From: Microbotryum violaceum
Lineage: Eukaryota
Assembly: GCA_001244265.2 (NCBI GenBank)
Contig: CDLV01000015.1
Location: 806,001-870,000 of the forward strand
Direction: 5' to 3'
DNA: 64,000 nucleotides
Part shown: positions 33,020-53,595 of the stretch, in pieces
Layout of the letters: every line of letters starts with the position of its first letter
Position numbering within the stretch: position 1 is the stretch's first letter
Translations under genes and position numbers: made by a program
Notes under the pieces: generated by a model
The model's database searches: none
Told to the model about the DNA's origin: nothing
The model's input: the letters and a program-made list of their open reading frames with translations, nothing else

Positions 33020-33759
33020 GATGGGGAACTAGGGGTTGTGCGATAAAGAAATGAGCCGCTATCGTAGTCAGTCGACCGATTCAGATTCAAGGGAGGGGCT
33101 TCGCGGGGCAGGGGAGATCGTTGACCGACGACGACGACGACGTGTGAGACGGCTGTGAGGCCGGGACGAGCAGAGTGGGGCGTGTGTGTTGGGAGGGAAG
33201 CCACTTGGGTGATTAGCAAAGTGTCGTCCAAAGAATCAAAGTGTTTCTCGCTAGTACCCGGAGGCGGTGTGGGGTATGTATGTTGTGTCAAACAGAGGAG
33301 AGCGACCGTAGCTCAGCGGCACCGGTGCGTGCGCCCCCGAGCCCCGAGCTCTGCCAGGAAATAATGACGACCCCGTGAGCTTCTCGCATTCACGCGCATG
33401 TTCTTTCAAGCTCAACATCACGGTGGTTGCCGCAAATTGAACATGACTGGGCACACCGCCGCTTTTTTGTTGGTCGCAAAATCTGGGGACATGGTCAGAC
33501 TTTTTCTCAGAGTGTACTACTATCTTTGGACGCGATAACACGGGTGGTGAAATAATATAACCAGCCGTCCGGATATTGTCGAGGTGCGCGATTGATCGAT
33601 CACTCACTGATGACCTCGAGATTACGTTCAAGGAGCATATACTTAAAATAGCCCAGTCAACCCAGGGAAAACCATTTTTGGCGAAAAATAACGATGGTGT
33701 TTAATGAGACCCCAACAACATCGACATCCCTCACCTGCTATTTACCGAAGCTTCACTAT

Positions 33760-34787
33760 GGAGCTTTGAGATAAATCGGAAACTGCGTCCGATGCAGAGT
33801 GAACGGAAGCTCAGCCGATGACCCTGTCTTGAACGTGATCCGCGGCAACAAAACGGGTTGTCCAGTATGATCTCCTGTGAGAATGATGGCTTCGAGCAGG
33901 CGGGTGTGTAACCGAGTTAACAACAGTCTTGCCGCTGCACAGCCCCGCGGCGGGGTCCAAAGTTCTGAGGAGCATGACGGGACATCCCACTTTGAATGTT
34001 GCAGCGCGCAACGCCATCCCGGCGATGTTGAGACTCTGAAGGTACTCGATCGAGAACAGTGAATCGTCTTCGGTTTCGACCGAATCCGCGCTGTAGAACG
34101 TTTGAGCATCATCCGGCAGCAGGTTGAGCACCGTGTCGTTGATCCGATCCACCTGCGAATTTTTGGGCTCCAGAATTGCTCGATCTCGGAAGTATTCGAC
34201 TTTCCGCGTATATTGACATATTGTCCATTCGAGCGCGGGGACGGGATAAACGTGTCTGATCAACCCGGATCTGCTCCGCTTTTAGGCAGACAAACATGCG
34301 TCTTCAGGCCGCTGCAGACCGCATGACCGAAACGGAACGGGCAAAGGCACAGGGCTTCGGAGTTGGAGACGGCTCGGCGAACAAAACAGGAGACTCTATC
34401 GCGCTCCCACGTGAGCTTCTCCTGCCGGCGACCACGAGGAACAGATCCGGTATAATCAGACACGTCGTTCCCGTCCCCGCGCTCGAACTGGACAACATGT
34501 CAATAGGCGAAAAAATCGAATACTTCCGAGATCGGGCAATTCTGGCGCACAAGAATCCGCAAGTGGATCAAATTAACGACATGATGCTCGACCTGCTGCC
34601 GGGTGACGCTCAAACGTTCTACAGCGCGGATTCGTCTAAAAGACAGGCAAGGACTACTACTTACAGAGAGATGCAGCACCTCAACTTCCCCCCAGAAGGC
34701 AGCATTCATGATGACGATTTGTGTAGGCGATGACTTGGGAATGTCGGGAAGGCATTGCTTCGAATCCCCTGTGATGTTACAGTCCAA
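33760..34787. mobile_element. Degenerate, rearranged Helitron RepHel (PIF1-like helicase) fragments
   Basis: Helitron helicase-like motifs: GDSKQCLP (- strand); TNMRL...VGDG and [25 protein letters not shown] (+ strand); RAILEPKN...EYLQSL...[17 protein letters not shown] and LPRI...RTQFP (- strand). Frameshifts throughout. Confidence 0.88.
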
Positions 34788-41861: not shown

Positions 41862-44106
41862 ATGAACCTCGACGATGAGATGATGGCTTCCTTGGGAGGG
41901 ATCGAGTACCAACCGATGAATAATCAACACGGGGTTGGGAGTTCGAGTGCGGGCGTCAAGAGGGAATTGGATCGTAAGTCTCGGGCAAGGGGGGGCTTGA
42001 TCTGACGGTGACGTTACGCTTCAAAGGGGGAGTGAAGGGCGCTTAGCAGGAGAAGTGGTGGTGGTGTCATTCGGGTCGTTGAGCGATAGGGATCGTGCCG
42101 AAACAAAACCGAATGAGCGTGTGTACCCATTCTGGTGGTGCAGGACCATACATACACTCAGTCGCTCCAGAAACGAGCGTCGAAGCTAAAGCAAACTGAC
42201 GCGCTCGAACCGCCGCGCATCGTCATCTATTCCTCCTCCTTCTTCACGCGTCCCGTCTTGTACAGTGGTCTTTATCCTCGATTGTACTGGATGTGAGTCT
42301 GTTTTTGTTATTCACATGTTGGGAATCGGCGCGCGGTCACTGACGGGGTCCGTTTCCTCCCTTCGTGCTTCATTTAGCGATGGGATCTTATATCGCCGTT
42401 AGTCACCTCTCGCACTGGCCCACCAAGAGGGGACAGCATCCGTTCCTCTCTCCTTCGGTCTATTCGGGATCAGATCAAAGAGAACTAAACCCAGGCGCCT
42501 TTACTCGTCCCCCACCAGAGCGCAACCAAGAACATCGAACTGATCGTCGAGAACATCCTCGATTCGGGCAAATTGCCGAACCCCGAGGCGTTGAGGATCG
42601 GTTTGATCGCTTACAGGTTAGTCTCGGGATGATCGGTGAAACGGTATAATGGGTGTGTTGACGATATGTTCTGCTCTTTTCTGCCTCGCTTCCTCGGCCG
42701 TCCCGATCTACCCGTGGTGCACAATTTTCACGTTTTCGGCGAATCATCAGGGACTACCCACCTCAAGACAATTCCTACATCACTCGTTCCTTCGATTTCA
42801 CTTCCGACGTCTCATCCGTCAAAGCCGATCTCAAAACGCTCAACGCTTCAGGTGGGGGTGATGGACCGGAAGGCGTGACGGCGGCGATGAAGGCTTCGTT
42901 AGGGTTGAGTTGGAGATTGGGTGGTGGGACGAGTAGGATGGCGGTATTGATTGCCGATGCGCCTTGTCATGGGTTGGGGGAGTGAGTCAGATACGAGAAA
43001 CTTCAGATGAGATGATCGAATTGATGTTTTCTTCGGGCTTTTATGTCAGGTATGGTGATGGGTTTCCTGATGGCGGTCCGGTAAGTTTCTTCGAGTCCTG
43101 ATTTGACTCGTCCGACTCGGCGTCTGAAACCTTCCTTCTGTTTGCCACCTCATCAGGACGAAGAAGACCCACTTGAGATCGCAAGGTTGATGGCACAACA
43201 AGCCATCGGTCTCTTCGTCGTCGCTTGTGAACCCGCATTATCAGGTAAGCATCTTGACCGCGTGACACCTCGGTTCCGTCAAACTAAACCGACCCTTCAT
43301 CAGGCTACCAATTCGGCCTCGACTTTTTCCGCGCCCTGACCGTCATCACCTCCGCCGTCCTGGTCCCTTTAACGACCGCTTCCCTGCTCTCACACGTGAT
43401 CGTTGGTTCCGCACTCGAACAAATGGACATGGAACGCATCATCGAAGAAGTCGGTCTAGTGGTCGCGGAGAGAGTGCACGAGGGACAGGCTTCAGTCGAT
43501 GATATCGCTTTGGAGTTGCACCAAAAGTTGTTATTGAGGGGGGAGGAGACGAAGCAGTTAAAGTTCGAACCGATTCATGTGCGTCACGATCTCGGTCCTG
43601 CTTTGAGATTCAGTCCCGTGGGCTCATAGCTAACTCCTTAACTTGGGTCGAACGGTCGATCCGAATAGCGCGAAACTCCCGAAGCACAACATAACGTTCA
43701 AGTGCTCACCACCTCCCCTACTCTCCAACACGCCAAATCCCAATTGAAAAAGATTGTCGGTAGTCGATTCACGAAGAAATACCTCGAAACGCGCTACAAT
43801 CGAACCGCCTACGTTTACCCTCCCAGCGTACCCCCAAGACCTTCTTCTACCTCTTCTCTAGGCTCGGCAACTTTGAATCCGGGTAGTCCGCAACGAAAAG
43901 TTATTTCAGAATTCAAGCCTTTTGTGGCAAAGGGGAGGATGACGCTTCAGGAAGCGCCGATGGCCGAACAGTTGGACGCGGGAGAGGGGGAGGATGGGGA
44001 TGATGGTGCGGGCGCTATCGAGTTGAGGTTTGGGAATATCAGCTTGGAGCAGGCCAAGAGGATCACGATCGCGAGTGCTTGGAGGACACAACCCCCGAGG
44101 GCTTGA
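41862..44106 (+). CDS. Stand-alone von Willebrand factor A domain protein (resembles the vWA domain of vwkA-type alpha kinases, no kinase domain seen)
   Basis: Spliced: ELD|LVFILDCTG|SMGSYIA|SAT, GLIAY|RDYPPQD, ASGGGDGPE, VLIADAPCHG and YGDGFP. Microexons 42266-42292 and 42378-42397. Confidence 0.85.
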
Positions 44107-44450
44107 AGAGGGGAGCAGAAGCGCAGCGCAACGTGGCTGAGAGGAGCTGGAGCACGGGGGTGGTGGTGAAGGGCTTTCCTGACGTTTCTTCGTTTCCCTT
44201 GTCTTTGTGTTTATCATACATCCTCCGTTTTGTCATTTTCCCCCACGTTCACGACTTTTGGGTACTCGTTTTTCTTGACTCTTACCCTCGCAATGCAAAT
44301 GTTTTTCTCTCTATCGCCGTTCAGTTCGTAAAGAAGAATGACATGTACGTGAAAGCAAAGGGAGCATGGAATGATCCTTTTTCATAATTACATACGTGCG
44401 ATTGCTACACTCTTGTACTTGATTCTCCTCATCTTCGTGTGTCGTTCTTT

Positions 44451-45857
44451 TCATTCAGCCAACAAGACGTAATCCCTTTGCGAGAACGCAAACTTGAGCA
44501 CTGGTACAGTATTGACAAAATCCCCCCCCCAGATCAGCACTCGATCCTAAGCAAGCCCTTTCAAACCTTCTTGAAATTAGGACTGACCGTCGCCCGTTTT
44601 CAACTCGTAAAACCTCTGCTTGGGCACCATCTCATCATTGACCAAAGTCCCGTTCGCGGAATCGAGGTCTATAATGAACGGTCTAGTAGGCGCGCAAGGA
44701 GATGAAGATCAGCTTTCCTTTTTCATCTCCGGTAAGGTTCGAATAACTCTTGAACGTACTTGACGACCGATTTGGTATCCCCAAATTCGTTCGTTTCGTG
44801 TACTTGTCGGTATTGTAATACGGCATGTTGTTTCGAAGCGGAAGGGTGGTCGATAGGGATGTCGGCGACCTGGAGGAGGGAGGTGTGGGTCAGGTGGGGT
44901 TGTGGGGGGTGGGTGCAGAAAGGTACGCACTATCCTATCCCTCCCAAACAAGTATGCGGATTGTCGATGGACCAAAATAAGGTCTGTTCGTTTTGACCAA
45001 TAAAGCGAAGGAGAAAAGTCAGAAAGAGTCTTTCACACCTGTGATCTGATCTTCCCCTACGGCCAAACGAGGAAACGTACCCAATTGTTCCTTACCCTTG
45101 AAGACGTACAGCCTCCACGACCGTACGGGTTTCCTCGCTTCGGGGGGTTCGTTATATTTGAGGACCACGCCTCGGAGGGTACTGTGTCGTGATCGACCGC
45201 GGGTGAGGTTAGCAAAGTAATTCGGGAGAACTCTTGAGGTTTGCCTACTGACTTTGTTTCCGCCGCCAACGCGCCTGAATTAGCGAAATTCGGTTCGACA
45301 GGTTTAATCTTCTCCATCGCTCCTTCATCGACTCCTCCTCCACGTCGAGAAGAAGGTTCGACCCCATCTTTATGCATTTGGTCGGCTTGACTCGCGAGAG
45401 CACGACTGGGTCTTCCGGGGGAAAAAGAGCGGGAACGGGAAGGGCGTCGGGCACCCCAGTCGGGTTTGGTATCCGGTGGTACGACGGAGCGGGTGGTACG
45501 TGGGGGCGATCTAGACCGAGATCGTCTTGAGGAGGAAGGAAGAGGTCGTCGTCGGGAGTTGTCCGCGTCCGCATGTCGGTCGTCGCGATCAAAGTCCCTT
45601 GGTCGTGGTGGTGGACTTTGCCTTCTTACATCCCGGTCATGGGATCGACCATTGCCTTCTGTTCTTCTATCATCACCCTCATACCTCTCCCGCTGGTCAT
45701 ATTCATCTCTCCTTCGAGCAAGAGGTGGCGAGCGCTCCCGATCGTGCGGTCGATTCGAACGTCCTGCATCAGAGGGATAGCGAGAGGACATGCTGGTGTT
45801 GGGGTTGGACCGGTTCTTGAGATGAGGAGGTGGGGATCGATCGTAAGGGGCTGACAT
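44451..45857 (-). CDS. PML1: FHA-domain RES complex protein (SNIP1/Pml1)
   Basis: RS/RD-rich N-terminus; PNFANSGALAAET, LKYNEPPEARKP, WRLYVFKG, SAYLFGRD, HPSASKQHAVLQYR and DLDSANGT. Ends ...RDYVLLAE*. Confidence 0.9.
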
Positions 45858-46256
45858 GGTGGGGAAAGTTGGGTAGTGTGTGCGAGCGAAGAGGAGGAAA
45901 CGTCGGTGAACACCTCCGGGTGTGAGGCTCGGGCTAATTCGTCATTTAGAAGCTGTTAGGAAACCTCGATACTCGCCCGCTTGCAGTTTGGCCCTCCCCC
46001 ACCCCGGGCCAGCTCTCACGATCTCACGGCTCTCGCTCTCCTCCGCTCGCATCAACCTTCTCCCTCTCGCTTTCCCCCAATCGGCGTCCAGCGTCAAGCC
46101 TGCACCTCTTTATTCAACTCGAACGATTTTTTTGTTTGGGGTGAGGCAGAGGACGAGATGCAGTTGCCGCGGCCGGGGGAGCATCACCGAATCGAGCGGG
46201 AGCAGCCGACGTTGCTTCAGAGACACCTTCGACCTAACGCATCCGTGGGATGACTA

Positions 46257-46863
46257 CGTTCACGTAGGATCATCGACGCGGTTGGGGTAGCAGCGATACC
46301 GCCGGCTTCGACACGAGGCGGTAATTGGGAACGGTTGAGGGGCACACCGCGCTCGGTGGGCAACGAAGGAGGGACGATGATGCTTCGGCGGATGGAGATC
46401 GATAGAAACCGGGCAAAGGAGGGACTGGTTGATCTGACGAATCGGGATGATGAGATATGAAGAACTAGGATCGCGTAATACGATGCGCTGGTGAAGACTT
46501 GTGCGATCTCGTCGTGTACGTGCGAGCAACGTTGCCAGCTCAGCTCCAGCGTGTGTTTCCCTCGTAGAGCTTCCAGCTATAACTGGAATTGAGGCTGATG
46601 ACAGCCTCCGTGTTTTTGGTGAGCACAAGGTGACAGAGGTCGAAGGTATTTGGCCGATCACGTGGCATGCACTGACGCGCTGACGCTATGGGTGGGGCAC
46701 CACAGCAACGAGATGACCTTCGCAAGGCCGACTCCGAGGCGTTGAGTATAGTCGTGGGACCAGAACCTGGGTGCTACATTTGGGTGTAAACAGAGTAACG
46801 CTGGAAGGTATTATACTTCAAAGACCGTTTAGACTTGCTCAGATCTTTGTGAAGAGCGTACAT
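46257..46863. repeat. Direct repeat copy A (~600 bp), diverged copy of 50041-50658
   Basis: Colinear shared blocks such as GGGGTAGCAGCGAT.CCGCCGGCTTCGACACGAGGCGGT, GCGATCTCGTCGTGTACGTGCGAGCAAC and TATACTTCAAAGACC.TTTAGA. Confidence 0.92.
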
Positions 46864-46975
46864 CGGTGTCACGCATAAGCCGTCCGTCACAATGCATCAG
46901 CGCGGGTGAGCAGCAGCAGTGGCAGCAGCAGCACTGCCGTCTCACAGGCTCGGAGCTAGTACTACTAGTAGTAGT

Positions 46976-49082
46976 AGAGGCGCCGCCGTGCACGAGGCTG
47001 CCAGGGCCAGGCCAGCTAATACCAGAGAGACAAGTGTTCGATACCATGCAACAACTGCTAAGATAGTAACCCTTGAGCTGCTGCTGTTCATCACTCTCGG
47101 CTTGCGGCGTGTGCAGTGCGTCCAAGTTGGACGGTAACTACTTATGAACGCTCGCGCGCGGCGCCGCCCGGATCAACCCTGCTCCGCGATGATCCAGTGG
47201 CGGTGACCACCGTGCGACTCACCAGTGTGTGACATTCGGCCGTCTGTTTCAATGACATGGCAGTGAGCAGCGTATTGGTGGATTTAAAGGCTGGTATTCT
47301 TTCTCGGTCCATCGAGTGTACGATGCTACAGCCTCGCGGTGCTGTTCGATCATCCTCATTCAATCAGGCCGCTACGCGCGTGAAGTTCAAGTTGGTTGAA
47401 GCTTGCCTTCTTCGTCCCGTTCATTCCACTTCTGAGTCCTGCCACATTACAACGAGAACGTCCCTGCTTCGACGCTTTACAGACCTCCGTCCTGCTCTAT
47501 CCTCTGAGGTTGTATTCCCCGAGTCCACCGCAAGTGTTACTCCGGATCCCGCTGGTGAGTCCGAGTCGTCTGATTGCGATGATGTTGCGGTCGCGGCGCT
47601 CGGGCCTGCGCCCATGAAGCTGAAGCTGATACAAAAAAAAACCAGCGAAGCTCCGGACCACGACTGACGTCAAACGTTGGCCCCTGAAATAGCCTGCTCT
47701 CTAGGAACTGGGTGTCTGCCAACCTCGTCGTCCTCGGGCACGATCTTTGAAACTTACCCAGTAGGTCGAGGAAGCTTTTCGTTGAGTTAGTTGGCGCGTG
47801 CCGGAAACTGAACGACGCCTGTCGACTTCTCGCGTCAACTCCTCCCTTCAGTGGCGCGACGACGAGAGACCAAGCCTGCTGCGCCGAGCCTGCCGCGGGT
47901 GGTGCCACGAAAATTCGTCAAGATGGCCGCATTCAATCAGGAAACGAACAAGAGGACCCGACCGACGCAAGAGTGAGGAAGGAGGTGTATCGAATGGTAG
48001 AGAACTCCGAGTTGACATGCTCGAGGTATTTTCTACACCATTCGATGCACCCCCTTCTTCACTCTTGCGTCGGTCGGGTCCTCTTGATCGTTTCCTGATT
48101 GAATGCGGCCATCTTGACGAATTTTCGTGGCACCACCCGCGGCAGGCTCGGCGCAGCAGGCTTGGTCTCTCGTCGTCGCGCCACTGAAGGGAGGAGTTGA
48201 CGCGAGAAGTCGACAGGCGTCGTTCAGTTTCCGGCACGCGCCAACTAACTCAACGAAAAGCTTCCTCGACCTACTGGGTAAGTTTCAAAGATCGTGCCCG
48301 AGGACGACGAGGTTGGCAGACACCCAGTTCCTAGAGAGCAGGCTATTTCAGGGGCCAACGTTTGACGTCAGTCGTGGTCCGGAGCTTCGCTGGGTTTTTT
48401 TTTGTATCAGCTTCAGCTTCATGGGCGCAGGCCCGAGCGCCGCGACCGCAACATCATCGCGAACGGGATCCGGAGTGACCCTTGCGGTGGAATGGGGGGA
48501 TTTAATCTCAGAGGATAGAGCAGGACAGGGGTCTGTAAAGCGTCGATGCAGGGACGTTCCTGTTGTAATGTGGCAGGTTTTAGGAGTGGAATGAACGGGA
48601 CGAAGAAGGCGAGCTTCGACCAAACGCCCACTTTTACGCGCGCACGGACGCGTAGCCGCGCGATCCGGCGGACTGAAATTGTAGTGCGACTGGTGGACGA
48701 TCGAACAGCACCGCGAGGCTGTGGCATCGTAACCTCGATGGGCCGAGAGAGAATACCAGCCTTTCAATCCACTCACAAAGGCCAATACGCTGCTCACTTC
48801 ATTGGAATAGACGGCCGAATGTCACACACTGCCAGGGTCGAGTCGGTGGTCGTTGCCACTGGATCATCGCGGAGCAGGGTCGATCCCGGCGGCGGCGCGC
48901 GCAAGCGTTCATCAGTTGCCGTACAAGTCCGTCAACCGCACTGCACACGCCGCAAGCCGAGAGTGATGAACAGTAGCAGCTCAAGGTTACTATCTCGGCA
49001 GTCGTTGCATGGTATCAAACACTCGTCTCTCTGTGCTATCAGTCGGCCTGGCCCTGGTGGCAGCCTCGTGCACGGCGCCTCT
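46976..49082. repeat. ~2.1 kb palindrome (inverted repeat, ~1 kb arms, ~8-nt loop near 48012-48019)
   Basis: 47576-~48010 is almost exactly the reverse complement of ~48020-48460, giving mirror-image ORFs 47798-48187(+) and 47848-48237(-). Diverged outer arms continue to ~46976 and ~49082. Confidence 0.96.
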
Positions 49083-49399
49083 CAGACTAGCTCTAGTCTG
49101 CGCCCGTGATGTCACCGACGGCCTGCCCTAACGCGCTTGCAATTCCGCCCCCACTAGCTCTCCTCAGCTTGCTCATCGAGGTCACTGGAGGGCGGTTGCT
49201 CTCTCTCGCTGCTTCGGCCAACCGGCCTCTGGCGGCGATCCTACACCTCCTGTTCGATTCGATCAAATCCTTCCGCAAGCCGCCCGAATGGCTCCTCCTG
49301 GGGCCTCCCTTACCCGTCGACGCGACCCTCCGAACGCGTCGGCTCGAGAGCGTCGTGCCGTGGCTCACGGGCGGTTACCAACATTGCAGTAACCAGAAG

Positions 49400-50500
49400 A
49401 GCTTGTGTGCATCTTATGCCCTCTTCAATTCGTCGCTGTGTCGGTGCTCGTTTCCTGGGGCTCTAGCACTATAAGTTCGTACGGTGGGCGTGCGTCTGTC
49501 GTGGCGAAGAAGCTTGCGATCATGAGTTGGGATGCAGCGACTCTCGAGACGCAGAATCGAACGTCGTCCGGAGGCAAGCCCTTCCTCATTGTCCTCCGTG
49601 GGAAACAGGTCGTGCGCAGGTGACGATCTCCCTGCACGCAGTTGAGCGAGGAAGGAGGCTGTTCGTCGGAGGTGCTACCTGTGGTGCAGCTTGAAACGGC
49701 GAGCTCCCGGCGGTGAGTCGTCGAGCTTATTAGGAAGTGCGTCCGTCTTGCCCTTCTTGCAGAGTCGTCGCCCACACCTGCCTGACACGTGCTTTGCCCT
49801 TGTTGAGCCAGTGCCGTTTTCAGAACTGGGATCGCGTCGGGTCGCTCGATCTCCAGGCCTCGCTTCATCCACTTCGTCATCGATCGTTTTGATCGCCTCT
49901 TTTGCCGCCTTGTCGGCGTGCTCTTTGCCATCCATTGCGCCATGTCCTAGGGCTTAGCAGTTGTTCCTACCCATTCATCGCCGGTATCTGCGCCTACACC
50001 AGCCGTTACACCTGCGATACAGACGCTCGCTCTCAAGATCACTTCACGCGCGCGATGTAGCGCCTGGGGTAGCAGCGATCCCGCCGGCTTCGACACGAGG
50101 CGGTGATCGGCAACGGTTGAGGGGCACACCACGCTCGGTGGGCAACGGAGGAAAGACGATGATGATGCATCGGCGGATGGAGATCGACAGAAACCGGGCA
50201 AAGGAGGGATTGGTTGATGTGACGAATCGAGTTTGATCAGATATGAAGAATTAGGGTCGCGTAATACGATGCGCTTGTGAAGCCTTTTGCGATCTCGTCG
50301 TGTACGTGCGAGCAACCTTGTGTCAGCTCCAGCGGGTGTTTGCCCAGTAGAGCTTCCGAAGTATATCCTCTTTCGGAATCGAGCGTGGTGACAGCCACCG
50401 TGTTTCTGGTGAGCAAAAGGTGGCACAGGTCAAAAGTTTTCGGCCGATCACGTGCCGTGTACTGATGCTGACGCTATGGGTGGGGGTGGGGCACCACAGC
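49400..50500 (-). mobile_element. Degenerate non-LTR retrotransposon (I/Tad-like) fragment: RNase H and C-terminal region
   Basis: Minus-strand LGHGAMDGKEHADKAAKEA resembles the RNase H motif GHxGxxGNExADxxAKxA. Downstream ASFLAQLRAG resembles the SxLxQLRTGH motif. Many stops and frameshifts. Confidence 0.65.
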
Positions 50501-50658
50501 AACGAGATGAACTTCGCGAGGTCGACTGCGAGGCGTTGAGTAGTCGGAGAGTCGAGTGCAGTCGTAGGACCAGAAGCTGGATTCTACATTACTGTGTAAA
50601 CAGAACAGCCGTGGAAGGTATACTTCAAAGACCATTTAGATTTGTGAAGAGCATACAT
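50041..50658. repeat. Direct repeat copy A' (~600 bp)
   Basis: Aligns by eye, colinearly, with 46257-46863. Confidence 0.92.
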
Positions 50659-51321
50659 TAGTCTCACCCATAGGACCCACGGGCGTGGAACCCCGAAGCC
50701 CCGCCGCAGGCAGATATTTTCTTCCGACATTTTGAGGACCCAAAATTGTCGAGGCGCCTTTGAAGAGGTCGATATTCTGGGACCAAAACCATGTTTTTCA
50801 GCCGAGCCGCCTGTGCAAATCTCAACATTTTATTCGGTGGGTTGACACAATTCGCCCTACCTTCAGCGGCACGCCACTTTCGATCGGCCGCCGCGCGCCC
50901 GCAAACGCTCGGAACACGTTTTCGAGGACTTTGGAATGATTTTGGGAGCATGTAGAACAAGTTTTGGTATCCTTTTGAAGCGCATTTGAAAACTGATTTT
51001 GGACCAAAAGAGGGTGAAAAAAGCCAACAAAAAGTTCAGAACAGAGCGTTTTCCGACATGGGCCGCTGGCTGGGCTTTCGGGGGCCCTTGACCGTCGATC
51101 CGGTGAGCTCGACAGCGCTCCACAGGCGCGCCTTGGCGCTGCTGGGCCTCTTGCCTCAATCGTCGCTTCGTTGCTGCACACTACATAGTCACCACCGACA
51201 TCCGTGATCCTAGATCAGCGTGTAGCTTCCTAATTTTGCTAACCTAGACCAATCCAGTTTGCCAGAGTACCCTCATGTGAATCACGCCCACGCGCCGCAG
51301 TCATGGCAAGTTCCGATTGCC

Positions 51322-53595
51322 ATGTCTCGAATTCGAACATTGACGAGCCCATTGCCCATGTACAGTACCCAAAAACTCCCTTTGTCTCCTCGCCATAGCG
51401 TGATGTCCCACGCTCAGCTCAGCGAGACCCGATGCAGTGACGAACCGCGAGCGCCCCTCAGCTCTGCCAGTACGAGTCAGCACAACCGACAGCTTCCGGA
51501 TCACAGCGACGCCTCGGAGTCACCCCACCTTCGGCGTGTCAGTCGCGTGACTAGGCTCAGGTCTCTCGAATCCTCCATTAGCGAGAGCAATGACGGAGAC
51601 CGCGAGATCGAATGGGCGGGATTGAAGGACTTTTTCCTCGCGCCGTTGACCGACGACATTGACACGACCGTCGTCCCAGAGATCGTGTGGGAAGACGGAA
51701 AGCCGACGTTGGTGAGTGCGCACAGGGCACATGATGGCCATCGGTCTCTGGTGAACGTGGCCGAGCTGAGTTTGATCACCGAGTGAACAGAAGAGTCGAG
51801 GTCGCTTGCTGAGCTTTCAAGAAGACAACCAGAGCGTTCAAGTTTATGATCCGTCGGTTATCCCGGATGTCGTCCTCCTCACTCGCGAAGCATTCGGGGC
51901 CGACCCAAGTCTGGTAGCTACCTGGACATCGGACGACGAGGACGGCTACGATGATACGCGGTCGTGGTCACAAGTTGCTGCCGTCGCCGAGTTTGAAGGG
52001 CCGATGACCGACTCGGAGTCCGAAACCGAGTCCGTAACCGGGTCCCTTCCTCAGCGCATCCGAGAATCGCTTCGCACGCTCGTTACGCACTCGCTCCGAT
52101 CTCACGCACTCGGGTTCGACCTCTACGAAAACGTTCTCGAGATCGTCCTCCATACTCCAAGTGGTCGTTTTTGCAGCCCCGTGATCTACTGTAAGGAAGC
52201 GAATGGTTACCTGTCGACTTTTCTGGCGAGACTGCTCAGCCTGAGCGATCGTGAGCTCGGTGTCATCTCCTCACTGTTTGACCGCGCTGGTCCGGCGTCT
52301 TTCTCATTTGCATCGTCCGAGCTTCCATCTCGGGTTCCATGTTTTCAAAAGCACTTCTCGGGCTCTCCTCGACTCGAAAAAATCAGAATCTTCGAAACAC
52401 TCTTCCAGTCCAATTCCATCTTTGGACGTCACTCCTCGGCGTTTCGCATTTCAGCCGGCCGCGAAGGGTCGACTGCGCTTACCGAGTACGCAATGACGGT
52501 CTTCTTTGTCGAAGAATCTCGCTGCGACGAGCACGATCGTATCCGTCTCACGATCGCCAACGCTTCACCCGACGATCGACAAGGGCTCACTCATATCGTC
52601 GACGTGTATCGCGAAAGCGACTTTGTCGTCGTTCCTCGATTTTTTCCCGATACCCTCGACGCCAGCGAGTGGGGTCTCAAGCCGCGAGCGTTGGAGGTGA
52701 CATTCCATGAACAGTGCTTTGAACCGATCTGCGTCGTCGATTCGACCGAAGCGTTGGCACGCGTTATTCTGGGTGCCGTTCAAGGTCGGGACGCTCAGTC
52801 TTACTCCGTGATATGCTTTCCTCGCGCCCCTGGCTGATCACGGTGGCATCTATCTACTGCAGGCCTAGACAGTCTTTACCGCCTGCGTATCCTTCATCGG
52901 GACGTCTCCGCACCGAACGTTATGGTCACATCGGACGGTAACGGCGTGCTGATCGATTACGACACTGCGGTGTTCATGGACGGTCCGGAGGGGGAGGCGG
53001 AACGCAAGAAAAACGTTGTGAGTACATTTCTGGCCCAGCCAAGGCTGGTTTCGCCACATTGGGCATCGACTAGTGCTGATGACGGACCGCGGAGAACCGA
53101 TAACGCCAGGGAACGCTTACTTTTCGCGCGCGGGAACTGGTCAAGGAGTACGAAGGGCGACCACCGTTCTTTCATGAGCCATGGCATGATATTGAATCGC
53201 TGGTCTATGTGATTATGTACACCGTTTTAATCATGCCCAGTGGACCCGATGACTCGAGCGAGCTGTCCGAGGACGTCAAGAGCATCTGAAGGCGGTGGAA
53301 CTCGCATCTCGGAGCCGTCACCTCGAAAGACGAGCTCTTCTTAGCGCCCTGGGGTGCGAAACAATGGTTCGAGCCCTTCAAGGAGTTTTGGAAAGAGGAT
53401 CTGCGTGCGCTCGTGCAGACTGTCGCCAAGTACTGCGGTCTGGGTGTGCAGCGCAGGTTGTGGGCTGCGGAGGTCGACGAAGCCGCCATCCTCTAACCTC
53501 GTTGGGCAAGCGGCGAATTATCGCATCGCCAGCTAGCTTCGGACCTGCATGCTTTGATCGCGCGGGACAGGGCACTGCTTATGGTCCAGGGGTGA
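51322..53595 (+). pseudogene. FunK1-like fungal protein kinase, disrupted by in-frame stops
   Basis: ILHRDVSAPNVM, GVLIDYDTA and, after intron 53018-53109, GTLTFRAREL and HEPWHDIES. In-frame TGA 53287-53289 and TAA 53494-53496 interrupt an otherwise open C-lobe. Start is uncertain. Confidence 0.75.

Follow-up and report, generated by a model that had tools for sequence, protein, structure and literature searches.

A 2.1 kb palindrome in Microbotryum with scarred outer arms and a near-perfect inner stem

Introduction

Long inverted repeats with short spacers are known from several systems. The palindromes of the human Y chromosome are homogenised by arm-to-arm gene conversion. In yeast, long inverted repeats of the Alu-IR type are fragile, extrusion of hairpins or cruciforms with breakage at the centre being expected of them, and the breakage of yeast palindromes likewise starts from the hairpin-prone centre. 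A further class is formed by endogenous hairpin-RNA (hpRNA) loci such as the Drosophila hpRNA genes and the Arabidopsis IR71-type loci. This study deals with a palindrome of 2.1 kb and almost no spacer in a 64,000-nucleotide stretch of DNA from the anther smut Microbotryum violaceum (assembly GCA_001244265.2, contig CDLV01000015.1, positions 806,001 to 870,000 of the forward strand). The whole stretch is called the window, and all positions given are those of the window. An earlier note on the window had proposed the palindrome as a candidate source of long-hairpin RNA and small interfering RNA (siRNA).

Fragile inverted repeats are the subject of one review (PMC7999016) and fungal hairpin small-RNA loci are covered by another, recent one, in which the class of natural long-hairpin siRNAs is called unexplored (PMC9757828). 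For Microbotryum, there are reports of a process resembling repeat-induced point mutation (RIP) that converts TCG/CGA to TTG/CAA (PMC6831777; PMC4469406). According to the genome report of Microbotryum lychnidis-dioicae, transposable elements make up 14% of the genome, RIP-like hypermutation occurs, and one Dicer, two Argonautes and one RNA-dependent RNA polymerase (RdRP) are present, all of them reported as expressed (PMC4469406). Among the titles and abstracts searched, neither a Microbotryum study on a nuclear palindrome nor a small-RNA profiling study of Microbotryum was found.

Results

Comparison of the arms with each other placed the two inverted copies at 46984-48017 and 48018-49077. 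A repeat search returned 13 inverted pairs in 45000-51500, eleven of which tile this one palindrome. The inner pair I1 (47633-48004 / 48031-48402) comprises 372 nt at 98%, with 26 nt separating its arms, and is continued outwards by the pair I4 (47576-47643 / 48393-48460) with 68 nt at 100%. Complementarity lies between 78 and 98% in the outer pairs I2, I3 and I5-I11. When 46200-50800 was compared with the window by blastn, 46984-49077 matched its own reverse complement with 84.4% identity over 2187 columns (E=0). In the entire 64 kb, three repeat pairs in all were found by self-comparison.

Arm-to-arm counts were taken from a global alignment of both arms. The inner arms showed 423 matches, 6 mismatches and 1 gap block (429 positions compared). 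The single gap is one extra C/G beside the A9/T9 run, and five of the six mismatches are found at 47977-48000, adjoining the centre; the residual mismatches thus cluster within ~40 nt of it. For the outer ~600 bp, the same alignment gave 500 matches, 48 mismatches (34 transitions and 14 transversions) and 23 gap blocks, corresponding to ~9% substitutions. The two layers meet at a sharp step. Identity per 100 columns changes from 82-85 to 100 across the heterology at 47551-47575, which amounts to a net indel of 21 nt as 25 nt of the left arm face 4 nt of the right arm. GC content shows no break across the locus.

Folded as RNA, the inner 885 nt are predicted to form one hairpin with a 6-nt terminal loop. 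Its energy is -948.5 kcal/mol compared with -318.8 ± 5.9 kcal/mol for 20 shuffled sequences (z -106). By this prediction, the locus is a long inverted repeat able to form the extended double-stranded RNA stem that is typical of hpRNA loci. The dimensions given in the earlier note (1 kb arms, a loop of ~8 nt, ~430 bp near-perfect, an indel of ~20 bp and ~600 bp diverged) were essentially right, and its description of one extra base by the A9/T9 run and of mismatches near the loop agrees with the alignment.

The stretch is present in 20 of 24 listed public sequencing runs (7 studies), none of them recorded as RNA. The contigs of four runs with four different organism labels, namely X1, X10, X15 and X20, were compared with the window. 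The centre is bridged by record 12 of X10 (47924-48111) with 94 nt on each side and by record 20 of X15 (47322-48066) with 696 and 49 nt on its sides, the latter crossing the identity step too. Many single-nucleotide polymorphisms (SNPs) relative to the window are common to X10 and X20, which form one lineage, and X10 has 17 differences in 4529 nt of flank (~0.4%). Since the X10 lineage has the structure too at this divergence, the palindrome predates the lineage split. It is thus present in at least two natural lineages.

Several differences between the runs fall within the arms. In the A9/T9 region, a loss of 1 nt was observed at 47633 in X15 and at 47642 in X10; on the T9 side, 48394 is changed from G to T in X1 and X20, and TT is inserted behind it in X20. 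Given that the length of the A/T homopolymer differs between the runs, the one extra base is a matter of ordinary slippage or sequencing uncertainty. The mismatch of the window between 47977 (G) and 48058 (T) near the centre is a matched pair in X10 and X20 owing to a T>C change at 48058, and an additional T at 48081 creates a further bulge in both runs. In the left inner arm, X10 also departs from the window at 47597 and 47683, no X10 contig being listed over ~48112-48410. Between the lineages, the arms carry 11 substitutions in ~1405 nt compared with 17 in 4529 nt of the flanks (p=0.07), a tendency opposite to conservation. X20 had been guessed to be an RNA run. Its contigs have a depth of 2-5 over the arms and the intergenic flanks alike and, because of this evenness, it is indistinguishable from DNA.

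The outer arms differ from each other by transitions at 10 of 26 TCG-type sites compared with 24 of 267 other C/G sites (Fisher p=0.00017). This bias was stable, with p values of 0.00017-0.00036 over four alignment scorings and two gap margins. A general CpG effect is not seen in the outer arms, where only 5 of the 65 CpG sites without a preceding T differ. Within the inner arms, not one of the 27 TCG-type sites differs, which is significantly fewer than in the outer arms (Fisher p=0.00027). The two copies of a direct repeat that brackets the locus differ from each other at 6 of 30 TCG-type sites and at 22 of 254 other C/G sites (p=0.095). Of the ten TCG-type differences, seven have T/A in the left outer arm. 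This arm also has the lowest observed/expected ratio of TCG+CGA of all segments, 1.09 compared with 1.63 for the window, and is the sole arm segment that is depleted. One of the TCG-type differences, at 47175, reads CAA in the window and CGA in X10 and X20; hence, this change arose or was reverted after the lineage split. Given that the ~1 kb sequence occurs as two inverted copies in one genome and that the transitions between them are concentrated at TCG/CGA, the outer arms qualify as a lightly RIP-like-mutated duplication. The presence of RIP-like scars on the outer arms and their absence from the inner arms is a new observation.

The number of near-identical copies was estimated from contig depth. 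In X1, the outer-arm contigs have depths of 70.9-79.4, the upper value being that of record 4 (48431-48792), compared with 70-76 in single-copy flanks. Record 3 (48088-48460), in which the inner arms are collapsed, has a depth of 114.4 compared with ~73 in the flanks (~1.6x). These depths are consistent with one copy per outer arm and two of the inner arm, and with no additional near-identical copy. Apart from the palindrome itself, nothing in the 64 kb window resembled the arms by blastn or self-comparison, and no target was found within the window.

The palindrome is non-coding. Out of 41 stop-to-stop open reading frames (ORFs) of at least 70 aa in 46200-50800, 17 were searched against Pfam (E<=0.1), and the 14 that lie over 46217-50429, i.e. 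in the direct repeats, the arms and the unique segment, gave 0 matches. A match to YppF at 50664-51035 (E 0.0058) is below the family cut-off, at chance level and outside the palindrome, and it was discarded. The longest arm ORF (196 aa, 48519-49109) was the only one of the arm ORFs to be compared with 1.84 billion representative proteins. It gave a single match with E 3e-8 in 8 stretches, which was rejected as a homologue because the matched protein is a tandem-repeat artefact. Many of the arm-to-arm indels are not multiples of three and, consequently, no reading frame is kept along the arms. Rfam gave 0 matches at gathering thresholds in 44000-53000, and the window has no tRNA genes.

As for the host, the PEPCK ORF at 15645-16736 matches the Microbotryum lychnidis-dioicae p1A1 Lamole protein at 100% identity, with 82% for the second-best match. 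This identity indicates that the DNA of the window is that of M. lychnidis-dioicae. A search with a neighbouring ORF of 691 aa pointed no further than to Basidiomycota, with scores below 0.9.

The palindrome is intergenic, lies beside repeat fragments and is located ~1.1 kb upstream of a candidate FHA (SNIP1/Pml1-like) gene. The coordinates of the features are compiled in Table 1. The direct repeats DR1 and DR2, which are absent from the earlier note, bracket the palindrome together with 1 kb of unique DNA. Their alignment has 510 matches, 61 mismatches and 17 gap blocks, and the repeat search returned them as families D1-D9. They were also considered as long terminal repeats (LTRs), and this was rejected after reading the sequence by eye. 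Both begin with TG and could end in CA; the 5 bases before DR1 and after DR2 differ, so there is no target-site duplication (TSD), and neither a TGG-type primer-binding site after 46877 nor a purine run before 50065 was seen. A piece of DR1 of ~48 nt (46348-46395) also occurs elsewhere in the genome with the same foreign flanks across runs. Contigs of X1, X10 and X15 have loose ends on either side of this piece, those of X20 before it.

Table 1. Features of the palindrome and its surroundings in the window.
Feature	Position	Strand	Basis or remark
DR1, left copy of direct repeat of ~600 bp	46283..46877	+	blastn, 80.3% over 628 columns vs DR2
Outer left arm, diverged	46984..47575		pairs with 48461-49077
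Heterology at the identity step	47551..47575		25 nt facing 4 nt in the right arm
Inner left arm, near-perfect	47576..48004		423/429 match the right inner arm, 1 gap block
A9 run (mirror T9 run at 48395-48403)	47633..47641		homopolymer, length varying between runs
Imperfect centre	48005..48030		26 nt between the long arms; 6-nt loop in RNA fold
Inner right arm, near-perfect	48031..48460		repeat search and arm alignment
Outer right arm, diverged	48461..49077		blastn and arm alignment
Unique 1 kb segment between palindrome and DR2	49078..50064		no repeat in the window; ORFs without Pfam match
DR2, right copy of direct repeat	50065..50672	+	blastn, alignment
Fragment of high-copy dispersed repeat, right of DR2	50869..50966		raised depth in all 4 runs

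The dispersed repeat fragment to the right of DR2 lies in an AT-richer patch. Its summed depth in X1 is 2709 compared with ~73, i.e. ~37x the flank, and loose contig ends were found at 50869 (X10, X15 and X20) and at 50966. Further to the right, ORFs in 51322-52837 have a sub-threshold match to a fungal protein kinase family (PF17667, E 3.8e-5, 23 bits compared with a cut-off of 24.1). The depth of 51552-52000 is several times that of the flank, which points to a multi-copy gene family adjoining the locus. Immediately to the left of the palindrome, X1 contigs are cut at a trinucleotide run that resembles (CAG/GCA)n (46907-46935). In contigs of X1 and X15, 46050 and 49176 are connected through 6 foreign letters. 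This joint was not counted, as its shorter side has 24 letters and 31 are needed; it is probably not a deletion allele but a short motif that recurs elsewhere in the genome.

The left neighbour of the palindrome is an ORF on the minus strand (45057-45857). The earlier note had named the neighbouring gene SNIP1/PML1. An FHA signal was indeed obtained for the downstream exon-like ORF 44723-44929 (minus strand, E 0.0013), but with 19.6 bits it stays under the cut-off of 20.7, and the left-neighbour ORF of 266 aa had no Pfam match. A SNIP1/PML1-like identity is plausible but weakly supported. Away from the locus, a second inverted repeat was noticed at 34081-34277 / 34438-34634, with 197-bp arms that are 85% identical and differ mostly by transitions, and with a 160-nt spacer. 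Open frames run outward from it (33756-34259 on the minus and 34260-34733 on the plus strand), and it may be a head-to-head duplicated exon pair.

Discussion

The locus is a real, neatly layered structure, and its most likely explanation is an ordinary one. Probably, an old inverted duplication was hit as repeat DNA by the RIP-like process and its centre was recently re-copied from arm to arm up to the 21-nt heterology. The ~1 kb inverted duplication would have arisen long ago. Both copies would then have been recognised as repeated DNA and subjected to RIP-like C>T hypermutation at TCG while indels accumulated, which would have yielded the substitutions and gaps of the outer arms. Recently, one arm would have been copied onto the other over the inner ~430 bp, erasing the scars there. 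This probably proceeded by break repair or gene conversion from the centre outward with the other arm as template, the likeliest trigger being a break at the hairpin-prone centre, and the copying tract would have ended where the 21-nt heterology blocks pairing. The last events would have been slippage in the A9/T9 run and minor changes right at the centre. The cluster of mismatches at the centre could be a scar of this repair and may help to stabilise the structure. The earlier note had read the identity step as a hint of arm-to-arm conversion. The step is real, and arm-to-arm copying is its best account. The scars at 10 of 26 outer and 0 of 27 inner TCG-type sites suggest, moreover, that the inner part was re-copied after the scarring.

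Several points weigh against this history. We infer the conversion from the pattern, and selection for a paired inner stem would likewise keep the inner arms alike. The RIP index (TTG+CAA over TCG+CGA) does not exceed 1, but is 0.74-0.88 in the four arm segments compared with 0.79 for the window. As this composition index is not raised, the RIP-like episode, if there was any, was light. The case for it rests on 10 sites without an outgroup, the changes being unpolarised. In the flanks, 3 of the 15 between-lineage transitions shown are of the TCG type (odds ratio 2.3, p=0.18); since unique DNA may be somewhat TCG-hypermutable, it is unproven that the TCG bias depends on repetition. Finally, contig depth is a proxy for the number of near-identical copies, and diverged copies or targets elsewhere in the genome are possible.

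Compared with the RIP-like mutated repeats described for Microbotryum (PMC6831777; PMC4469406), the differences between the arms are similarly rich in transitions (34/48) and concentrated about fourfold at TCG, not at other CpGs. The locus differs from these repeats in being a two-copy, non-coding inverted duplication instead of a transposon family, in its light mutation load with an index that is not raised and in its scarless inner 430 bp. As in the human Y palindromes, a short spacer separates the arms, and copying within the chromosome accounts for their near-identity better than youth of the structure as a whole. It measures kb where they measure tens of kb to Mb, its arms contain no genes, and only the centre-proximal 40% are homogenised, with a tract that ends at the 21-nt heterology. 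By analogy, the locus seems to work like a small version of conversion-homogenised palindromes. Like the fragile inverted repeats of yeast, it has more than 300 bp of ~99% identical arms less than 30 nt apart, a likeness that offers a source for centre-initiated repair. Unlike them, it has lasted in at least two natural lineages, and the palindrome may be stabilised by the ~45 imperfect nt at its centre.

The inner perfect part could have come about in another way, namely by a separate, younger palindromisation, which we regard as a minor though serious possibility. After a break in an older and larger spacer, the end would have folded back at a short inverted repeat and primed new synthesis on the left arm. 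The strand made in this way would then have been joined to the old right arm at the start of homology, and the 21-nt junction would mark this point. The step is indeed sharp and located exactly at an indel, and the mismatches are found close to the centre, as expected for an imprecise fold-back point. Moreover, fold-back priming is documented for inverted duplications in yeast according to PMC7467729 and PMC10622511. On the present data, the end product would nevertheless be the same as that of conversion from the centre outward, and a former spacer that left no trace is an extra assumption.

The same inner arms could also be kept alike by selection if the locus were a functional endogenous long-hairpin RNA gene (hpRNA or endo-siRNA gene), which is unlikely. 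Both arms would be transcribed and the inner stem of ~430 bp diced, and the resulting siRNAs would silence in trans or nucleate silencing in cis. The predicted fold of the inner 885 nt into one near-perfect hairpin of -948.5 kcal/mol fits such a gene, as does the retention of the palindrome in two lineages. So does the 47977/48058 mismatch at the centre, which is paired in X10 and X20, although the extra T at 48081 in the same two runs adds a bulge. Dicer, Argonautes and an RdRP are reported for the species (PMC4469406), and natural long hairpins of fungi remain to be explored according to a review (PMC9757828). On the other hand, conservation between the lineages is no higher in the arms than in the flanks, and the outer 600 bp have decayed with 23 indels. 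Furthermore, with two inner copies and single-copy outer arms by contig depth, there is no near-identical repeat family to silence, and the window holds no target.

In comparison with known hpRNA loci, the long near-perfect inverted repeat, the minimal loop and the Dicer/Argonaute/RdRP equipment of the host are alike, and the locus would work likewise if transcribed. It is known from DNA alone, and its arms have decayed in part, with a conservation that does not exceed that of the flanks. The earlier note had called the palindrome a Dicer substrate if transcribed. This holds in so far as the core machinery of RNA interference (RNAi) is reported for the species (PMC4469406), and a transcript through the locus would consequently be a Dicer substrate. 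A hairpin-siRNA role is thus mechanistically possible, and dicing of the ~430 bp near-perfect duplex of a read-through transcript is a possible by-product of the structure. The further suggestion that the locus silences a repeat family did not survive the X1 depths, the outer arms being at flank depth and the inner ones at ~1.6x, nor the lack of any resemblance elsewhere in the window, and such silencing is unlikely. A little more doubtful than a functional hairpin gene as such is the bolder view that a plant-pathogenic basidiomycete has here a natural gene for long-hairpin RNA, with a ~430 bp stem kept paired to feed Dicer and with siRNAs directed either in cis at the repeat-bearing surroundings or at some diverged target in another place. 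If this were true, RIP-like mutation and RNAi, two genome defences, would meet on one sequence.

It is improbable that the palindrome is the relic of a non-autonomous DNA transposon of the foldback or long terminal inverted repeat (TIR) type. As in such elements (e.g. Tm1, PMC3169594), there is hardly any spacer, and two long inverted arms take up nearly the whole unit. Repeat fragments are found nearby at 50869-50966 (~37x flank depth) and 51552-52000 (several-fold), and the transposable elements that account for 14% of the genome include TIR elements according to PMC4469406. However, a scan of 70 x 65 boundary pairs found no TSD flanking the palindrome. It returned three candidates only, all within the arms at the self-complementary GTGCAC. 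Contig depth equals that of single-copy flanks, internal subrepeats were found neither by the repeat search nor by blastn, and no transposase remnant was detected among the ORFs searched (Pfam; the longest arm ORF against the representative proteins). In all these respects, the locus departs from foldback and long-TIR transposons.

An assembly or library artefact in the form of a fold-back chimera, which the earlier note had named as a possible refutation, is scarcely credible, because even though palindromes with tiny loops are a known chimera product and no single listed contig spans the whole structure, the centre is crossed with at least 49 nt on each side in two other runs from different studies and with different labels, one of them, X10, belongs to a lineage with SNPs of its own, and a chimera cannot yield diverged outer arms with 23 indels.

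Overall, the locus is a well-described structure with an inferred history, and no more yet. As a natural, long and spacer-poor palindrome that survives in at least two fungal lineages, it is a case for studying how fragile structures persist and are revised. It also provides a two-copy test case outside the transposons for the RIP-like process of Microbotryum, which is still uncharacterised. The presence of an old, scarred part next to a re-copied, scar-free part could help to separate repeat-triggered from transposon-associated mutation, and the contrast in scars would serve as a relative clock for the copying event. With the full RNAi core of its host, the locus is an obvious first place to seek a natural long-hairpin siRNA source in fungi.

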